Shown here: in pieces, positions 1-7,799 of the stretch | Layout of the letters: the number at the start of each line of letters is the position of its first letter | Numbering within the stretch: position 1 is the stretch's first letter | IMG/VR virus record: IMGVR_UViG_2563366957_000012 | Direction: 5' to 3' (one strand) | DNA: 28,184 nt | Source: a virus | Lineage: Duplodnaviria; Heunggongvirae; Uroviricota; Caudoviricetes | Notes under the pieces: generated by a model | Databases searched by the model: none | What the model saw: only the letters and a program-made list of their open reading frames with translations | Told to the model about the DNA's origin: nothing | Program-made: the position numbers and the translations under genes

Positions 1-288
1 TTAACGGATCAACATCCAGATCAGCAGACACGCCACCACCGGCACAGCAAAATCCATCAGGCTTGCCACATCCCACGCGCGCGGATCAAAACCGCCCCAC
101 CACGGCATATTCATTCGCTTGCCATGCCCGAACATTTCAATCCAGCGATATTCTGCCTGGGTATGTTCACGCGCAATGAAGAACGTACAACCGGCTATCG
201 CTCCGTAAGCCCAGTTTCCGGTAAAAAGACCAACCAGTACCTGCGCAGCCACAGCACAAAGTGCATGAAGGAAAGGTGTTATATCCAT
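1..288 (-). CDS. Small integral membrane protein (95 aa, two to three predicted TM segments), last gene of the tail-fibre operon; function unknown
   Basis: Complete ORF (ATG at 286-288, TAA at 1-3). Strong RBS AAGGAGG 5 nt upstream of the ATG, lying in the 3' end of the upstream gene. Hydrophobic stretches LHALCAVAAQVLVGLFT and VASLMDFAVPVVACLLIWMLI. No family recognised by eye. Confidence 0.5.
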   Translation of the reverse strand: MDITPFLHALCAVAAQVLVGLFTGNWAYGAIAGCTFFIAREHTQAEYRWIEMFGHGKRMNMPWWGGFDPRAWDVASLMDFAVPVVACLLIWMLIR

Positions 289-298
289 TACGCCTCCT

Positions 299-1003
299 TT
301 ATCCGATATCGCTTCGGGAAACGGATAACAACTTTAATTCTGACTCAAGTTCATCAACTCTTTCAGTCAGCTTCTGGATATGGTGAATCAGTGGAACAAC
401 CAGACGTTCGTACATTACACCTTCGGCAACAAGGCCATTGCTGGAAATGGTTTCCGGTGCATCATCTTCGTTGGCTGGTCGCCAGTGAACAAACTGAGGG
501 GCAATTTCTCCTACTTCCTCGGCAATCAATCCATAGAATCCCCAGTCACGCCTGTCATTTTCGCATTGCGACCTGTACCACACAGGGCGCATCCTGAAAA
601 TGAGATCGGCGTGCTCTGAATCTATCGTCTCTACTGAATGTTTATAGCGGATAGACGATGTTGACCGCAGCACAGACGAAATTGCAGGGTCAGGATTAAG
701 ATAAAGATTTGCCGCCGCTGTAGTTGTGCCCAATCCCCATAAATAAAACGCTTCACGGCCAGTCAGCGGGTAAAAATCTCCGCCATAACGACCACTTTCC
801 AGATCGTTCACTTCCACTTTGTTTTTCAGCTTATTATCCACTTCTGTTTTTGTGTATCTGGTACTGATATCCTGCTTTGCACTGTCCATATCAGTCTGAA
901 GCGTTGATACTTTTACGTTAATTGAGGAAATATCTTCCTTTGCCTTACTGACATCTCCCTTTAGCGTTTTGATGTCATCAGGAATTACTGTCGATGTAGC
1001 CAT
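299..1003 (-). CDS. Tail-fibre-like protein: N-terminal coiled-coil region plus C-terminal intramolecular-chaperone (peptidase S74-like) domain, 234 aa
   Basis: The C-terminal half (SIRYKHSVETI...DLIFRMRPVWYR...GLIAEEVGEIAPQFVH...GVMYERLVVPLIHHIQKLTERVDELESEL) matches the conserved pattern of the autoproteolytic chaperone domain found at the C-termini of endosialidases and some tail fibres. The N-terminal ~70 aa are charged and heptad-like. RBS GAGGAAG upstream of the ATG at 1003. Confidence 0.55.
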   Translation of the reverse strand: MATSTVIPDDIKTLKGDVSKAKEDISSINVKVSTLQTDMDSAKQDISTRYTKTEVDNKLKNKVEVNDLESGRYGGDFYPLTGREAFYLWGLGTTTAAANLYLNPDPAISSVLRSTSSIRYKHSVETIDSEHADLIFRMRPVWYRSQCENDRRDWGFYGLIAEEVGEIAPQFVHWRPANEDDAPETISSNGLVAEGVMYERLVVPLIHHIQKLTERVDELESELKLLSVSRSDIG

Positions 1004-1012
1004 TTTTCTTCC

Positions 1013-1294
1013 TCACATCCAGCTACGGAGTTGATGCTCAACAGCAACCGCGTGTTCATCGAATAATGACGATATTTGCGAATCATTAATGATGCGCACA
1101 TTTACAAAATATCCGTCCTCCTTAACACATACCGGCTCGCCATCTTCAGTCAGTTCTCCGGTTTCTTTGTACACATTACCTATCACGTCAATAAGAATAT
1201 CATCCTGCATCGACTCGTCATCATAATAGCCAATGCTCTCCATAAAGGCCGAAAAGTCGGCCCTGTCGACAAATTTGAGTGTTAAATCTTTCAT
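1013..1294 (-). CDS. Hypothetical acidic protein (93 aa), translationally coupled to the side tail fibre gene
   Basis: Its ATG overlaps the stf stop codon (TAATG at 1292-1296). Very acidic composition (many D/E). It sits where a tail-fibre assembly chaperone normally lies but has no recognisable Tfa motif. Confidence 0.45.
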   Translation of the reverse strand: MKDLTLKFVDRADFSAFMESIGYYDDESMQDDILIDVIGNVYKETGELTEDGEPVCVKEDGYFVNVRIINDSQISSLFDEHAVAVEHQLRSWM

Positions 1295-3672
1295 TAGATT
1301 AACTCCCCCACCTGAGCATCAGTCAATGCCTTGTGCCATATTCTGAAATTCCTGACATGACCAAATAAATGGCGTAAACCGGCTGTAGTCTGGCCTCCAA
1401 TACGGATAATTGCGGAGTTCTGAATACAGGACCATGTGGTTTTTGTTTCGCTGGATATACGCCCGTTACTTACTGCGCATGTAGACTGATCTGACTTTAC
1501 ACGCATCCCCATAACCATTTTTTCAAGCGATGCATTTTCGTTTATCCGCCTGTTAGCCCCACCAATATCGCAATAAGGAAATCCGTCGTAATCTGCTGAA
1601 GAACCGAAGCCAAGAATAATAGCCGCTCCGGTTTGATGACCGCCGGTATCAAAAACACGCGGTGCTGCATTTGGCGTTTTATACCAGTTCTTATGTACCT
1701 CACAAAGAACCGTAAAAGGTAGATTATAAAGATTATTCTTAATTGGGACTGTAACTATATCGCTTGCCCGCGTTACCGGTGCAGCCCCCGTAACAATAAA
1801 AGATGATGCGCCTGTACCAGCCTCAATCTGGGGAGTGGTTACATCGAGACAATCCCCTGATGCCACCATCTGACCTGTATCCGGAGAATACTGGACGAAA
1901 CCACCAACCGTATTTTCTGTTGTATCTGCTTTTAATGTAGCCTCAAAAAATATCCAGCCAGTTGCATCATCCTTAACAGACCTTGCTGTAACACGGCTTG
2001 TCTGACCTGTCTTGCTAATTATGCGGGTGGTAAGGTTCAGGCTTGCTGTTCCTATTGATGTCCTTACCTCCCCATCATAATGTTCAAATAAAATACGAAC
2101 GTCGATATTATCAACTTCACTTTTTACCCGACAGGATATAGTTACATACTTTTCGTCCCCTGAAGTATCAACCCCTCCGGTACTCGAATACAGTCCGATA
2201 ATGGTATGCGCTTTACTTGTACCAACAATCGAATCCTGTACGACAAACCGGCCATAATTAAAACCGAAACTATCTGTGCCTGTTTCTGTAACGTCCAGTG
2301 AAGTTGACTTATTCCACTTCGAAGGGTCTGTACTGTTCGGGAAGAAGTTCGTTCTTTGCCCCTCAATAAGCAGGCCATCACGTTCAAATCGTGGCTCGTC
2401 AATGGTAGCCTCTGTCAGCACACCAGATTTATTAATGTAAGTTGCTTTTGATGCGCGTTTAAACTTAACCACCTTGTCACCAGGCATCGTTATTTCGTCG
2501 TCACCAATAACAATCTTTTTATAAGATGGCGAAAAGCCCGTAATCATATCCAGTGAATCGTTAAATGGTATCCACACATCAGGCAGCGGCTGTAAGACAT
2601 ATTTATACGGCTCCGCAGCCTGGCTTGCGTACTCTCTGGCTGCATCTTCGCTTGCTTTAGCTGCCGTCTGGCTTGCTGCCGATGCTTTCGCTGAGTTCGC
2701 AGCCGCTGTTTCGCTCACCTTTGCGTTGGTTTCACTGGTTTTTGCTGCTTTTTGACTGTTGGCTGATGCAGTGGCAGAAGCAGCCGCCGCGCTTGCAGAA
2801 CTGGCTGCGGCACTCTCGCTTTGGGCTGCTGCATCCTGACTGTTTTTCGCCGCAGTTTCGCTGGCTTTGGCATTCGTTTCGCTGGTCTTCGCTGCCGTCT
2901 GGCTGGACTTTGCGTTAGTTTCACTCGTCTTCGCAGCTTTCTGGCTGTTAGCCGCAGCAGTTGCTGATCCAGCTGCTAAAGTCACAGAACCGGCTGCCGC
3001 GCTCTCGCTTTGGGCTGCTGCAACCTGGCTGTTTTTTGCCGCAGTTTCACTGGCTTTGGCATTCGTTTCGCTGGTTTTCGCTGCCGTCTGGCTGGACTTT
3101 GCGTTGGTTTCGCTCGTCTTTGCGGCTGTCTCGCTATTTTTCGCGTTGGTTTCTGATTTTTTGGCTGCTGTCGCGGAGTTTGCCGATGCAGTCTTTGAGG
3201 TCGCTGCCGCCTGTGCACTATTAGCTGCATTCGTTTCTGAGGTTTTCGCCGCGTTCTTTGATGATGCCGCTGCAGTTTCGGATTTCTTTGCCGCCGCTGC
3301 GCTCTGAGAGGCGGCTTCGGCGTTGCGTGCCACTTCTTCCACCATTGCCTCAAAACGACGCAATGCCTCCGGCATGACATCATCTTCCGTCATGGCACCG
3401 AGAAAATCATTCAGCGTACCTGGTCTGGAACCTTCATAGACGGTAATGGTTCCGGCATGTGAAGGCGGAAAACCTTCAACCAGCAGGGTGACGCTGTACT
3501 GGCCATACTCAACATCCATGCTGTAACGCCCGGCTTCATCCGGATTTTCAGAGGCCACCGTGTTCACCAGTACCGTGGTGCTGTTACGCTTTGCCTTCAG
3601 TTGAATAGTGCAGTTCTGTATTGGTTTTCCCGCACCATCTTTCAGCACACCTGAGATTTTTACTGCTGCCAT
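1294..3672 (-). CDS. stf: Side tail fibre protein (Stf-like): lambda-Stf-type N-terminus, Ala/Ser/Thr-rich repeat region, C-terminal LamG/concanavalin-A-like lectin-type domain
   Basis: N-terminus MAAVKISGVLKDGAGKPIQNCTIQLKAKRNSTTVLVNTV...GRYSMDVEYGQYSV closely matches lambda Stf. The C-terminus ends ...RNFRIWHKALTDAQVGELI, typical of LamG-like jelly-roll domains. The ORF track extends to 3678 through a GTG; the ATG at 3672 has a GGAG RBS at 5-nt spacing and matches the lambda start. Confidence 0.85.
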   Translation of the reverse strand: MAAVKISGVLKDGAGKPIQNCTIQLKAKRNSTTVLVNTVASENPDEAGRYSMDVEYGQYSVTLLVEGFPPSHAGTITVYEGSRPGTLNDFLGAMTEDDVMPEALRRFEAMVEEVARNAEAASQSAAAAKKSETAAASSKNAAKTSETNAANSAQAAATSKTASANSATAAKKSETNAKNSETAAKTSETNAKSSQTAAKTSETNAKASETAAKNSQVAAAQSESAAAGSVTLAAGSATAAANSQKAAKTSETNAKSSQTAAKTSETNAKASETAAKNSQDAAAQSESAAASSASAAAASATASANSQKAAKTSETNAKVSETAAANSAKASAASQTAAKASEDAAREYASQAAEPYKYVLQPLPDVWIPFNDSLDMITGFSPSYKKIVIGDDEITMPGDKVVKFKRASKATYINKSGVLTEATIDEPRFERDGLLIEGQRTNFFPNSTDPSKWNKSTSLDVTETGTDSFGFNYGRFVVQDSIVGTSKAHTIIGLYSSTGGVDTSGDEKYVTISCRVKSEVDNIDVRILFEHYDGEVRTSIGTASLNLTTRIISKTGQTSRVTARSVKDDATGWIFFEATLKADTTENTVGGFVQYSPDTGQMVASGDCLDVTTPQIEAGTGASSFIVTGAAPVTRASDIVTVPIKNNLYNLPFTVLCEVHKNWYKTPNAAPRVFDTGGHQTGAAIILGFGSSADYDGFPYCDIGGANRRINENASLEKMVMGMRVKSDQSTCAVSNGRISSETKTTWSCIQNSAIIRIGGQTTAGLRHLFGHVRNFRIWHKALTDAQVGELI
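2690..3320. repeat. In-frame tandem repeats inside stf (about 192-bp period; two near-identical ~125-bp copies at roughly 2811..2937 and 3003..3127)
   Basis: Direct DNA repeats visible by eye (ctctcgctttgggctgctgca...ggctttggcattcgtttcgctggt...gctgccgtctggctggactttgcgtt). They encode the repeated peptide KTSETNAKSSQTAAKTSETNAKASETAAKNSQ.AAAQSESAAA. Confidence 0.8.
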
Positions 3673-3679
3673 ATCCACT

Positions 3680-3736: not shown

Positions 3737-4336
3737 TCAGAATTTATAACCGACACCCACGATGAAACCGTCAGTGCGCCAGTCGCCACTGCCGGAGCCT
3801 TCATAAGCAATATCAATGGCCACGGATTCGGTCGGGTTAAACTGCACGCCAGCTCCCCACGCCAGAGACGTGTTGCTGTGGCGATCGTCATCACTTCCGG
3901 TCAGCACATCGTGCGTTTTCCCCTTGTTGTCAGTTACGCGGAGATAATCCCCGGAGAACGTCGAAACACGGCTGTAAGCCACACCTGCCATCGCATAAGC
4001 ACTGAACCATTCATTCACGCGTACAGATGGCCCCGCCATCATGCTGAACCAGCGGTTACGCACTGAATCTTCATGCCAGCGGGTATCGCTGTAATGCGTT
4101 TTTTGCTCATCTTTGGCATTGGCATAACTGAATGACGTCACCAGCCCCAGCGTGTCCGTAAATTCATAACGGTATTTCACGTTAATGCCCTTCAGGTCAT
4201 CACTGCCTGGCATATCAGTATGGGTCTGAAGATACCCGGCGCTTAGTGTGGACTGATGCTCTGCTGCGCTCGCTGGCGTACCAGCGGCAACCAGCCAGAC
4301 TACTGCGGACAGAATAACAGCACATAATTTACGCAT
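3737..4336 (-). CDS. lom: Lom outer-membrane protein (Ail/Lom family beta-barrel), signal-peptide-bearing
   Basis: 199 aa, N-terminal signal peptide MRKLCAVILSAVVWLVAAGTPASA, C-terminal aromatic residue (ends GYKF), and the lambda position between J and stf. Confidence 0.85.
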   Translation of the reverse strand: MRKLCAVILSAVVWLVAAGTPASAAEHQSTLSAGYLQTHTDMPGSDDLKGINVKYRYEFTDTLGLVTSFSYANAKDEQKTHYSDTRWHEDSVRNRWFSMMAGPSVRVNEWFSAYAMAGVAYSRVSTFSGDYLRVTDNKGKTHDVLTGSDDDRHSNTSLAWGAGVQFNPTESVAIDIAYEGSGSGDWRTDGFIVGVGYKF

Positions 4337-4403: not shown

Positions 4404-7400
4404 TCAGCTAATCGTGATGCCTGCAGTGGCTTTCTTCATCACAACAACCAGCAAATCGCTGATACTTGCTGTGGGATACCAGCCATTTACCAGCCATGCT
4501 GACACCGAAAACTCCAGTGTCATGTGACCGTGACCGGCAGGCATATCAATAACGCCACTGTAAATCAGCGTATTATCCAGCGCGGTACGGTTATAAATTT
4601 CAGCACCGTTTTTCCGCACTATCAGACGGCATGAGGAGTAAATATCAGTATGCTCTCTCTCATGCTTAGCGCCACTGAATGCCACAGCCGGAATAACAAT
4701 TTGCCGGTCAAACGGCTGATCGTCATAAACCCTGACGGTAATGGTCCCTGATGGCCACCGCTCCGGTGCCCGGGAGTCACGGGGGAAAGCTTTGCCCACT
4801 GTTTTAACGAGATCGCCTTCAATCTGGTTCGCGGACAGTTTTCCCAGAACCCGGCAGTTCTCGTTAATCGTGACGTTGTTGAGCGTCCCGGAGTTCGCAT
4901 TCACGTTACCGCTGATATCGGCATTTTTCGCCGTCAGCCGCCCGTCCGGTGTCAGGGAAAATGCCGGAGGATTACCGCCGCTGGTAATGGTGGGGGCCGT
5001 CAGGCGCTTCAGGAACACGTCGTTCATGAATATCTGGTTGCCCTGCGCCACAAACATCGGCGTTTCATTCCCGTTTGCCGGGTCAATAAACGCGATACGG
5101 TTAGCGGCAACCAGGAACTGGCTCAGTTTGCCTTCCTCCGTATCCTCCATGCTGAGGCCAAGCCCCGCGACATAATGTTTGCCGTCTTTGGTCTGCTCAA
5201 TTTTGACGCCCCACATGGCATTCCATTTATCGTTGGCGTCCTTCCACTCTTTCGAAAACTCCTCCAGTTTGCTGGCGTTATCTTCCGTCAGCTCAAAGTT
5301 TTCCAGCAGTTCCTTGCCGAGATGCGTTTTATTGATCAACCCTTTATAAAAATTCAGATAACCTTCCGCATCATCGCTCGCCCGACCAACGGCCTCCACA
5401 AATGCCGATTTACCAACGGTGTTCACGCTGCGGATATAAAAGTAATAATCATAACCCGGCTTAATATTGCTACTGGCGGCTATCCAGTACAGCGCCGTAC
5501 CAAGATAACGCGCGCTGGTTTCAACCTGCCTGATATCGATAATCCGCTTTTCCGAGAACCAGAACTCAAACTGCACCGTCGGGTCATATACAGCCAGTTT
5601 CGGGACCGCTGTTATCTGAAAATACCCTGGTATCAGTTCAATAGTGACAGGCGCTGCCGGTGCCGCAATCCGGAACGATACCGATGCCGGATCGCCCTGC
5701 TGCCCCCACGCATTTACCGCCCGGACCGTCAGCGTGTAACGCCCCAGCGCCAGTTGCCTGAAGCGGTATGTGGTTTCCGTCGTCCGGGCCATGCTGACCA
5801 GCCGCTCACTGCCGTCGTCCGCTGCCACGGTAAGGCGAAGCAGGAAGCTCACGCCCTTCACCACCTTCGGCGTGTCCCATCGCGCCAGCACCTGATATTC
5901 CCCGCTGTCTGCGGTGACTTCGGCGGTCAGGTGCTGCACCGCTGGCGGCGTGACACCATTCACCGTGCCGCTCTGGTCGCCGTCAAAGTGCGCCCCGTTA
6001 TCCACGATGGCTTCTTTTTCCGGTACATGCTGCACGGCGGTGATGGCATACGTACCGTCATCGTTCTCCCGGATACTCACACAGCGGAACAGGCGCTGGC
6101 GCAGCGTCGGCAGCTTCAGCCCCCATACGCTGTATTCAGCAACACCGTCAGGAACACGGCTCACTTTTACCTTCACGCCGTCGGTGACGGACTGAACCTC
6201 CACGCTGACCGGATTGCCACTTCCGTCAACCAGGCTTATCAGCGTGGTACCGGAGGATGGCAGCGTGATTTCACGGTCGAGCGTCAGCGTCCGGGTCTGG
6301 CTGTTCACCGCCAGCACACGACCACCGGTGCTGATACCGGCATAGTCATCATCACAGATTTCAATGACATCGCCCGGTACATGGCGAAGCCCTTCTGCGC
6401 CCACGCTGAAGTCCACGGTCTGCGTTTCCAGCAGTTCCGTTTTAATCAGCCACAGCCCGGCGCGGTGTGCCTGCCCCCGGCTGGTACAGCCAAAGGCATC
6501 CATCTTCGTGACGTTACGACCGTAACGGGCAATGGCCTGCGTATCTTCAACAAGCTCTGTCGCCGTCTCCCAGCCGTTGTTCGGGTCAATCCAGTTCACC
6601 TCAACGGCATTATGGCGGTCCTTCAGGGCGCTGAAGCTGTAGCGGAACGGCGCGCCATCATCCGGCATCACCACATTACTGCGGTTATAGGTCCACACCT
6701 TATCTGATGGTCGGTCCTGCACGAACGTCAGCGTCTGCCCGTTCCATACCGGCATACAGCGCATCGCCGAGCAGAAATCACTGAGAACATCCCACGCCTT
6801 ACGCTGTGTGGTCAGCCAGGCATTACAGGTGATGCGCGGCTCCGTGCCACCAAAGCCATCCGGCACCGACTGGTCGCAATTCTGGCCGATGACATACAGC
6901 GCCCATTTGTCCACATCCGCCGCACCGAGACGCTTCCCCATGCCGTAGCGCGGATGGGTCAGCATATCCCACAGACACCAGGCCATGTTGTTGCTGTATG
7001 CCGGTTTTAACGTTCCGTCCCAGATACCGCTGTATTGCCGCGTCTGCGGGTTATAGTTCGACGGCACCTGCAGAATGCGCCCGCGAAGATGATAATTACG
7101 GCTCACCTGCTGACTGCCGAACTGTTCCGAGTCCACCTGCACGCCGACCAGTGCCGTGTTCGGGTAGCACTGTTTCACATCGATGATTTCGGTGTATGAC
7201 GACCAGAGCGTTTTGTTCTGCAGCTGGTCTGTGGTGCTGTCCGGCGTCATCCTGCGCATCCGGATATTAAACGGGCGCGGCGGCAGGTTACCCACCACCA
7301 CCGAGGCCAGATACTGCGAGGTGGTTTTGCCCTTAATGGTGATGTCTTTTTCCGTCACCCAGCCACCGTTACGCTGTATCTGAACCAGCAGGCGGACTTC

Positions 7401-7799
7401 CGACGGATTCCTGTCCCCCTTTGAGGTGGTTTCCACCAGTGCCTGCACGCCGAAAGTAAAACGCAGACGGTCGATGTTTGCCGACGTGATGGTCCGGGTG
7501 ATCGGCGTGTCATATTTCACTTCTGTACCGAGCACCGTCTCGGAGCCGGAGGATTCAAATCCCTCCGGCGGTGTCTGCTCCTGCTCACCGGCCAGGAACA
7601 CCACCGTGACGCCGGATATATTGGTATTCCCCTCACTGTCCAGCACCGGCGTACTGTTCAGCAGCACGCTTTTTAATCCATCCACCGGACCTTCAACCGG
7701 CCCTTCGCTGATGGCATCGATCACACTCAGCAGCTGCGTGGACTTCAGGTTGTCCTTCGCTTCGCGCGGGGTATGCCCCTTACTGCTGCCTTTACCCAT
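4404..7799 (-). CDS. J: Tail tip / host specificity protein J (central tail fibre), 1131 aa
   Basis: N-terminus [54 protein letters not shown] and most of the length match lambda J as I recall it. The C-terminal ~150 aa (receptor-binding region) diverge. GGAG RBS upstream. Confidence 0.95.

Follow-up and report, generated by a model that had tools for sequence, protein, structure and literature searches.

The side tail fibre gene of a lambda-like Escherichia coli prophage combines a lambda-type collar and shaft with a two-domain, non-lambda head

Side tail fibres determine how fast lambda-like particles adsorb and to which strains. When particles derived from lambda are engineered to deliver DNA to gut E. 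coli, it is these fibres that are exchanged (PMC11338833). The side tail fibre (Stf) of Ur-lambda has been modelled as a collar, a linker and a trimeric coiled coil (proximal domain, residues 102-393), in which residues 1-91 form the collar round the gpV/gpM junction at the tail tip (PMC12617516). Rcc01080 (GhsB), the head spike fibre of the Rhodobacter capsulatus gene transfer agent (RcGTA), mediates binding to the capsule of R. capsulatus, and its AlphaFold model has been described as lectin-like (PMC7296036, PMC10218006). For the T5-like phage IrisVonRoten (Bas32), the BASEL-2 preprint predicts that the T-shaped fibre Gp24 docks on the proximal fibre Gp22, and describes the C-terminal domain of Gp22 as 'galectin-like' and as a possible extra receptor-binding domain (10.1101/2024.09.12.612763). 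Here we describe the stf-type gene found in 28,184 nucleotides (nt) of Caudoviricetes DNA (IMG/VR record IMGVR_UViG_2563366957_000012), the whole of which was analysed and is referred to as the window. The gene is a mosaic in which a lambda StfN collar and a lambda-like coiled-coil shaft are followed by a non-lambda head, and the mosaicism is finer-grained than had been proposed in a first-pass annotation of the same DNA.

The gene encodes the side tail fibre of a lambda-like E. coli prophage, and it belongs to a common, already annotated kind rather than to a new system. It is preceded by J and lom in a tail gene cluster of lambdoid type, and phrog_1419 ('tail protein', 793 positions) covers its product end to end. 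A 4.4-kb stretch that includes the gene is present at 100% identity in eight complete E. coli chromosomes, where the same coding sequence (CDS) comes after gpJ and an Ail/Lom gene, at the end of the prophage that adjoins yodB/zinT, and is named 'prophage tail fiber N-terminal domain-containing protein' by the Prokaryotic Genome Annotation Pipeline (PGAP). The kind is known from its PGAP annotation and its PHROG family; cultured phages also carry homologues, of which one has already been treated in the literature. Absent from the literature searched were the domain-level cassette structure, the partner protein of 93 amino acids (aa) encoded beside the gene, and the occurrence of the IrisVonRoten-type three-gene order in lambdoid prophages.

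The proximal half of the protein is lambda-like. PF08400 matches residues 5-134 with an E-value of 5.4e-67 (224.3 bits against a Pfam cut-off of 26.6), and 100 of the 118 residues from 3 to 120 (85%) are the same as in lambda orf-401, which corresponds to the N-terminal half of Stf. The Ala/Ser/Thr-rich region is about 50% identical to the lambda Stf shaft. No alignment was obtained between the head and orf-314, the lambda Stf tip. The first-pass annotation had called the gene a mosaic side tail fibre with a lambda-Stf-like N-terminus and a tip other than that of lambda Stf, and all of this stands.

The C-terminal head comprises 424 aa folded into two all-beta domains, A and B, in an AlphaFold2 model built from an alignment of 56 diverse family members (predicted local distance difference test, pLDDT, 91.5; predicted template modelling score, pTM, 0.89). 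The family numbers 2123 representative clusters, the majority of which span all 424 aa. Domain A is homologous to Rcc01080. It matches the NCBIfam model NF048003 ('phage head spike fiber domain') over residues 437-638 with an E-value of 6.3e-19 (69.2 bits, cut-off 36), and it matches chain F3 of PDB 6tb9, which is Rcc01080, with E-values of 9e-6 as a single sequence and 1.4e-40 as a family profile. The head family profile also matches the gp17 tail fibre (9occ), E217 gp45 and Pa193 gp46 at approximately 1e-15; the last two (PDB 8env, 9b45) are Pbunavirus baseplate wedge 'triplex' subunits that anchor the tail fibre and are not fibres themselves (PMC10329688).

Comparison of alleles identified domain A, not domain B, as the segment that is swapped. 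Allele L002 (strain CNR65D6) is 95-98% identical to the fibre studied here in the collar, shaft, connector and domain B, and 56% identical over residues ~433-648. A variable core held between conserved flanks is what one would expect if a specificity cassette had been exchanged by recombination. The residues invariant throughout the family (R60, G65, E69, N74, Q247, E249, S256 and R267, in the numbering of the head fragment) sit in the strands that flank this core. Since domain A is exchanged between otherwise near-identical alleles, we assign receptor specificity to it; most likely it sets which surface glycan, O-antigen or capsule, is recognised, the class of ligand being deduced from sequence relationships. 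For the same reason, domain B is probably not the main specificity determinant. Per-column conservation in the 120 best database matches was set aside in favour of this direct allele comparison, because those matches had been picked by similarity to this head and were hence biased. In the L002 record (NZ_OU701452.1, 4294..6672), PGAP splits the fibre in two, with a pseudo fragment for the N-terminus and a CDS of 416 aa named 'phage head spike fiber domain'. Because the frame is open across all 792-793 codons, the split looks like an annotation artefact arising from the mosaic gene rather than a real disruption.

Domain B is a divergent Laminin_G_3/ConA-like domain. In the head fragment, PF13385 matches residues 368-420 on profile positions 98-150 of 151 with a sub-threshold E-value of 0.0017 (18.9 bits), and the match falls exactly on the terminal motif that the first-pass annotation had named as LamG-like. 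When the whole 794-aa protein was compared with Pfam, no LamG-type match was seen even at E <= 1; the match appears only with the 424-aa head alone and in relatives. Among the 56 diverse relatives, 36 are matched by PF13385 at E <= 0.01, the best with 4.5e-12. The last ~150 positions of the family profile match 4qvs (1e-8), the CBM40 of NanA (7e-5), pentraxin (4e-4) and the Hcn domain of BoNT/D (5e-3), and the beta-sandwich jelly roll of domain B is superimposable on LamG, pentraxin or carbohydrate-binding module (CBM) structures. The LamG call for the end of the protein holds, and structure prediction, which had been proposed as a check on the C-terminus, returned a confident two-domain beta-sandwich model. 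Two other claims about the tip needed revision. It had been given ~250 aa, and the non-lambda part in fact extends over ~424 aa and two domains; it had also been proposed as a swapped receptor-binding module, probably carbohydrate-binding. The swap is borne out by a non-lambda head on a lambda collar and shaft, and a carbohydrate-binding role is suggested by homology; the first and larger domain had been overlooked and is the one that alleles exchange. The first-pass annotation had also passed over the 93-aa partner gene inherited with the head and the S74 fibre gene beyond it. Nothing specific came of a literature search for E. coli tail fibres with Laminin_G_3 or head-spike-fibre domains.

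The same head is joined elsewhere to P2-gpH-type (PF12571), TSP1-type (PF18668) and other N-termini. It is widespread among coliphages and was found in 223 phage records, including lambdoid PhiR49_2 (86% identity) and T5-like, rV5-like and Dhillonvirus phages, and it occurs in siphoviruses and myoviruses alike. Among the 5426 complete E. coli genomes searched, which are the basis of all genome counts given here, the shaft was found in 969, domain A of this type in 296, domain B with the 93-aa open reading frame (ORF93) in 576, and the whole 4.4 kb in 69. Our preferred reading, which we consider probable, is that the gene encodes the Stf of a lambda-like prophage and that this fibre consists of four exchangeable parts, namely collar, shaft, domain A and domain B. 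Heads that are 70% and 43% identical to that of this fibre are also present in two records named 'Campylobacter phage', MG065692.1 (C13, 99.9 kb) and MG065635.1 (C12, 137.6 kb), respectively. The sizes of these records are near those of T5-like and rV5-like coliphage records, and their host labels or purity may be doubtful.

The positions of the features discussed here are given in Table 1.

Table 1. Features of the side tail fibre locus, in window coordinates
Feature	Position	Strand	Description
J	4404..7799		Tail gene
lom	3737..4336		Tail gene cluster, between J and stf
stf-type side tail fibre gene	1294..3672	(-)	792 aa from ATG; same CDS as PGAP WP_016230681.1; stop TAA 1294..1296
StfN collar / tail-attachment domain	3277..3666	(-)	Residues ~3-132; PF08400 phage_tail_N
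Shaft	2629..3300	(-)	Residues 125-348; 32 uninterrupted heptads, consensus E-T-A-A-K-x-S
Repeat unit 1	2932..3120	(-)	Residues 185-247; 189 nt, 63 aa, 9 heptads
Repeat unit 2	2743..2931	(-)	Residues 248-310; 189 nt, 63 aa; 159/189 nt and 56/63 aa the same as unit 1
Head domain A	1720..2463	(-)	Residues ~404-651; beta-sandwich, homologue of RcGTA head spike fibre Rcc01080
Domain A core (allele-variable segment)	1729..2376	(-)	Residues ~433-648
Head domain B	1297..1737	(-)	Residues ~646-792; divergent Laminin_G_3/ConA-like beta-sandwich, ending ...RNFRIWHKALTDAQVGELI
ORF93	1013..1294	(-)	93 aa, phrog_1361; ATG overlaps stf stop (TAATG)
ORF234	299..1003	(-)	234 aa; conserved N-terminal peptide (MATSTVIPDDIKTLK), coiled coil, Peptidase_S74 intramolecular chaperone domain

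The shaft is probably a trimeric coiled coil with an Ala/Ser core, as judged by homology. Its heptad register is strict and free of indels or stutters: position 4 is Ala in 30 of 33 heptads, and position 7 is Ser in 31 of 32. Part of it consists of two tandem units, which were detected by a repeat search and an offset scan. The units share 84% DNA identity, their longest in-register exact run is 29 nt, and 17 of the 24 codons that differ are synonymous. Control offsets at other multiples of 21 gave between 91 and 115 matches out of 189, as compared with 159 at the repeat period; because none of them exceeded 115, the 189-nt repeat is real and exceeds chance. Tandem Repeats Finder did not report the 189-nt repeat and listed just 42-nt and 21-nt sub-repeats.

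An 841-nt segment that holds both units has an identical length in 975 records, from 969 genomes, at 91.7-100% identity. Because this length is constant, the two-copy state is regarded as old and stable, though copy-number polymorphism does exist: alleles of 729-730 aa (P0012, P0053) are short by exactly one 63-aa unit, and there are shorter shafts too, with anchor-to-anchor distances of 64, 152, 157, 199 and 262 aa. The duplication is neither near-perfect nor recent. The first-pass annotation had described near-perfect 192-bp in-frame tandem repeats, to be verified by self-comparison. That comparison does reveal a tandem duplication, but one of two copies with a period of 189 nt and the divergence given above. 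Its further suggestion, that the region is prone to copy-number change, draws weak support from the one-copy alleles and is countered by the constant length of the segment, which also rules out the shaft as a hypervariable contingency-type repeat.

Several long ORFs (up to 146 aa) run antisense to the shaft, one at 2867..3307 (+) and others within 2670..3390, and an antisense 'orf206b' has been annotated in the matching region of the lambda stf. These are most likely by-products of the stop-poor, repetitive and GC-rich heptad codon pattern, not genes.

ORF93 begins where the fibre gene ends. A homologue follows the head in every context examined, in at least five unrelated phage backgrounds that cover siphoviruses and myoviruses, T5-like and rV5-like phages among them. 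In a second siphovirus prophage it is 88 aa long, in a metagenomic lambdoid contig 92 aa and in another contig 97 aa, and in a P2-like myovirus a homologue of 100 aa occupies the position of gpG. Others were found in PhiR49_2, CarlMeissner and CFT073, and as Gp23 of IrisVonRoten (39% identity, E-value 2e-25). Fourteen residues are invariant in five distant members of the family, all 345 database clusters of which are labelled 'hypothetical' and have no Pfam family. ORF93 is unrelated to the lambda chaperone Tfa (hhalign probability 0.07%), and Pfam gave no Caudo_TAP (Tfa-type) match downstream of stf. It was modelled as a small alpha/beta fold, for which a fold search gave no informative match, and the ratio of nonsynonymous to synonymous substitution rates (dN/dS) was ~0.37 in one pairwise comparison. 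ORF93 is most likely a cognate assembly or structural partner of the head.

ORF234 starts 10 nt past ORF93, with a GAGGAAG Shine-Dalgarno sequence ahead of its ATG. It matches PF13884 with 27.3 bits (cut-off 22). In 740 genomes the 705-nt CDS is intact and 93-100% identical, and dN/dS was ~0.20 in one pairwise comparison. Its first 15 codons (44 nt) are 100% identical in nucleotide sequence to those of the S74 gene (346 aa) that CFT073 carries in this position. The N-terminus of ORF234 also resembles that of IrisVonRoten Gp24 (MVTKTVIPTDITKLK versus MATSTVIPDDIKTLK, 11 of 28 residues identical), and the C-terminal parts align with an E-value of 1e-7. ORF234 either forms a short branch that docks on the side fibre or represents a stranded 3' remnant of an older stf gene of the S74 type. 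By analogy with IrisVonRoten, the particle may carry a branched side fibre.

We hypothesize that the fibre works as follows. The lambda-type collar, for which homology has been demonstrated, would attach the fibre to the tail tip, and the tandem duplication of a nine-heptad block (63 aa, an estimated ~9 nm if alpha-helical) would lengthen it. Domain A would recognise a glycan in the first, reversible step of adsorption, and domain B would be the conserved terminal Laminin_G_3/ConA-like part of the head. The head would do without the Tfa chaperone of lambda, travelling instead with a translationally coupled protein of ~93 aa. ORF234, a short fibre that would dock through its N-terminal peptide and cleave itself by its S74 domain, is a candidate for the distal branch. 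A broader and distinctly tentative proposal is that the head, ORF93 and an optional S74 fibre make up a portable 'branched fibre' cassette for lambda-, T5-, rV5- and P2-like tails, with ORF93 as a new class of partner (chaperone or connector) that replaces Tfa/gpG. Each trimeric coiled coil would then present three lectin-like heads in the manner of a collectin, domain A would provide glycan specificity, and domain B with ORF93 would form the socket for MATSTVIPDDIKTLK.

A number of points weigh against these proposals. The PF13385 score for this protein is under the Pfam gathering threshold (18.9 versus 27.6 bits). In RcGTA a monomeric fibre stands on a pentameric base, whereas the shaft beneath the head is presumed to be trimeric here. 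The dN/dS values of ORF93 and ORF234 stem from a single pairwise comparison each. ORF234 has no counterpart of Gp24 residues ~30-440, that is, of its receptor-binding domains. It also aligns end to end with the C-terminus of a long S74-type Stf (phrog_3299, E-value 5e-139), so that it could be a retained 3' remnant rather than a docked branch. PhiR49_2, a 598-aa fibre type and a P2-like locus possess the head and ORF93 and no third fibre gene. Searches of the literature turned up no data on binding, adsorption or virions, either for this protein or for homologues in E. coli.

The role of the head could be construed differently. Its main task might be to dock a second fibre, as a platform or branch point (ORF234 here, Gp24 in IrisVonRoten), with ORF93 as an optional connector and specificity residing chiefly in the distal fibre. 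The recurring order of head fibre, ~93-aa ORF and S74 fibre is in keeping with this, as are the conserved N-terminal peptide of the third protein, the constant spacing of 10 nt, and a third gene whose length varies (234, 346 or 574 aa) while its first 15 codons stay the same; the BASEL-2 preprint, moreover, predicts attachment of Gp24 to a homologous proximal fibre. We nevertheless regard it as unlikely, given that at the many loci without a third fibre gene (PhiR49_2, the 598-aa type, P2-like) the head must work on its own, that a hypervariable domain A is expected of a receptor-binding surface and not of a conserved docking site, and that mature ORF234 would have just ~115 aa and no recognisable binding domain. 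Alternatively, domain A might not be a passive lectin but an enzyme that attacks O-antigen or capsule in the way of tailspikes, as a glycan depolymerase, lyase or esterase built on a ConA-like jelly roll. Charged residues that are invariant in relatives of 25-76% identity (R60, E69, N74, Q247, E249 and R267) could be read in this way, but they lie outside the variable core in its flanking strands, where a structural or hinge role fits better than a catalytic one. The best matches of the head are non-catalytic (AbnA domain 4, BoNT Hcn, pentraxins, CBM40 and CBM4/22), published work on the characterised homologue, Rcc01080, presents it as a binder, and domain-profile scans matched no catalytic family to the protein; an enzymatic domain A is therefore highly improbable.

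A different objection concerns the locus as a whole, which might be a decaying cryptic-prophage remnant whose genes are no longer assembled, with ORF234 as the 3' end of an older S74-type stf left stranded by the recombination that imported the head. From its first residue, ORF234 aligns with the final ~240 positions of a fibre family 1385 aa in length; the related CFT073 and SCU-301 loci carry an IS200, a frameshifted J or fragments of tail-fibre-assembly genes; and PGAP labels the fibre as split or pseudo in many genomes. Set against this, the tail genes of the window are intact from the tape measure to stf, the supposedly split L002 allele is really one open frame, and ORF234 keeps its exact length in 740 genomes, with a dN/dS of ~0.2 and its own Shine-Dalgarno sequence and ATG. 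Inducible or lytic phages bear the same cassette. Decay of the locus is accordingly very unlikely in our view, and we retain the reading of a functional Stf composed of four exchangeable parts.

As to the wider setting, the stf start was placed at the ATG at 3672, and ORF calling prolongs the frame upstream as far as the GTG at 3678. Elsewhere in the window the ORFs of the tail and head are intact. Beyond ORF234, positions 1..288 (-) encode a hydrophobic protein of 95 aa (MDITPFLHALCAVAAQVL...) without a Pfam family, and 97-aa homologues end the same cassette in PhiR49_2, the metagenomic lambdoid contig and CFT073. Located at the prophage end, it may be a membrane 'moron' or an exclusion gene. 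Downstream of the cassette in CFT073 (L015) and SCU-301 (L016), a pin-type recombinase adjoins a truncated tail-fibre-assembly gene, and these may be remnants of an invertible tail-fibre segment. In CFT073, IS200 is located between lom and stf.

These findings offer leads for host-range prediction and for the design of chimeric fibres. The piece that confers specificity is probably a cassette of ~215 residues, domain A, between conserved flanks; such a head would be expected to need its own 93-aa partner and not Tfa; and a second small fibre may dock on it. The current understanding of phage tail fibres is not overturned, and the modular make-up of this one is resolved in more detail than in its annotation.

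The closest described systems each share a part of this arrangement. With the Stf of lambda and Ur-lambda, the fibre shares the position after J and lom, the PF08400 collar at 85% identity and the Ala/Ser-rich heptad shaft. The distal part of lambda Stf is gp37-like and binds OmpC, while the head described here shows no similarity to that tip; the lambda tip is fibrous and this head globular and lectin-like; and lambda has the Tfa chaperone where an unrelated 93-aa gene is found here. With Rcc01080 the likeness is confined to domain A, which is homologous to it by family profile and by a score over the NF048003 cut-off. Rcc01080 is a 325-aa monomer held on a capsid pentamer through an N-terminal (I/L)-G repeat, whereas its counterpart here sits on a tail fibre behind a probably trimeric shaft. 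The (I/L)-G anchor repeat is not matched, as the alignment begins at Rcc01080 residue 43-45 and the N-terminus of the present protein is StfN, and the extra Laminin_G_3-like domain that follows domain A is missing from Rcc01080. Domain B in turn is similar in profile and fold, including the terminal strand motif, to the jelly rolls of the ConA-like clan (Laminin_G_3, pentraxin, CBM40 and botulinum-toxin Hcn). DT57C LtfA/LtfB was considered as a close parallel and dropped, since the C-terminus of LtfA is an S74 domain instead of this head. IrisVonRoten has three genes in the same order and with the same spacing (Gp22, Gp23 and Gp24); the C-terminus of its Gp22 is 62.8% identical to the head over 424 aa, and both the N-terminal peptide and the S74 chaperone domain of ORF234 recur in its Gp24. 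The two loci differ at either end of the assembly: the N-terminus of Gp22 is T5-type (LtfC-dependent) instead of lambda StfN, and the T-shaped Gp24 bears two receptor-binding domains, one Gp12-like and one T5-like, neither of which is present in ORF234.

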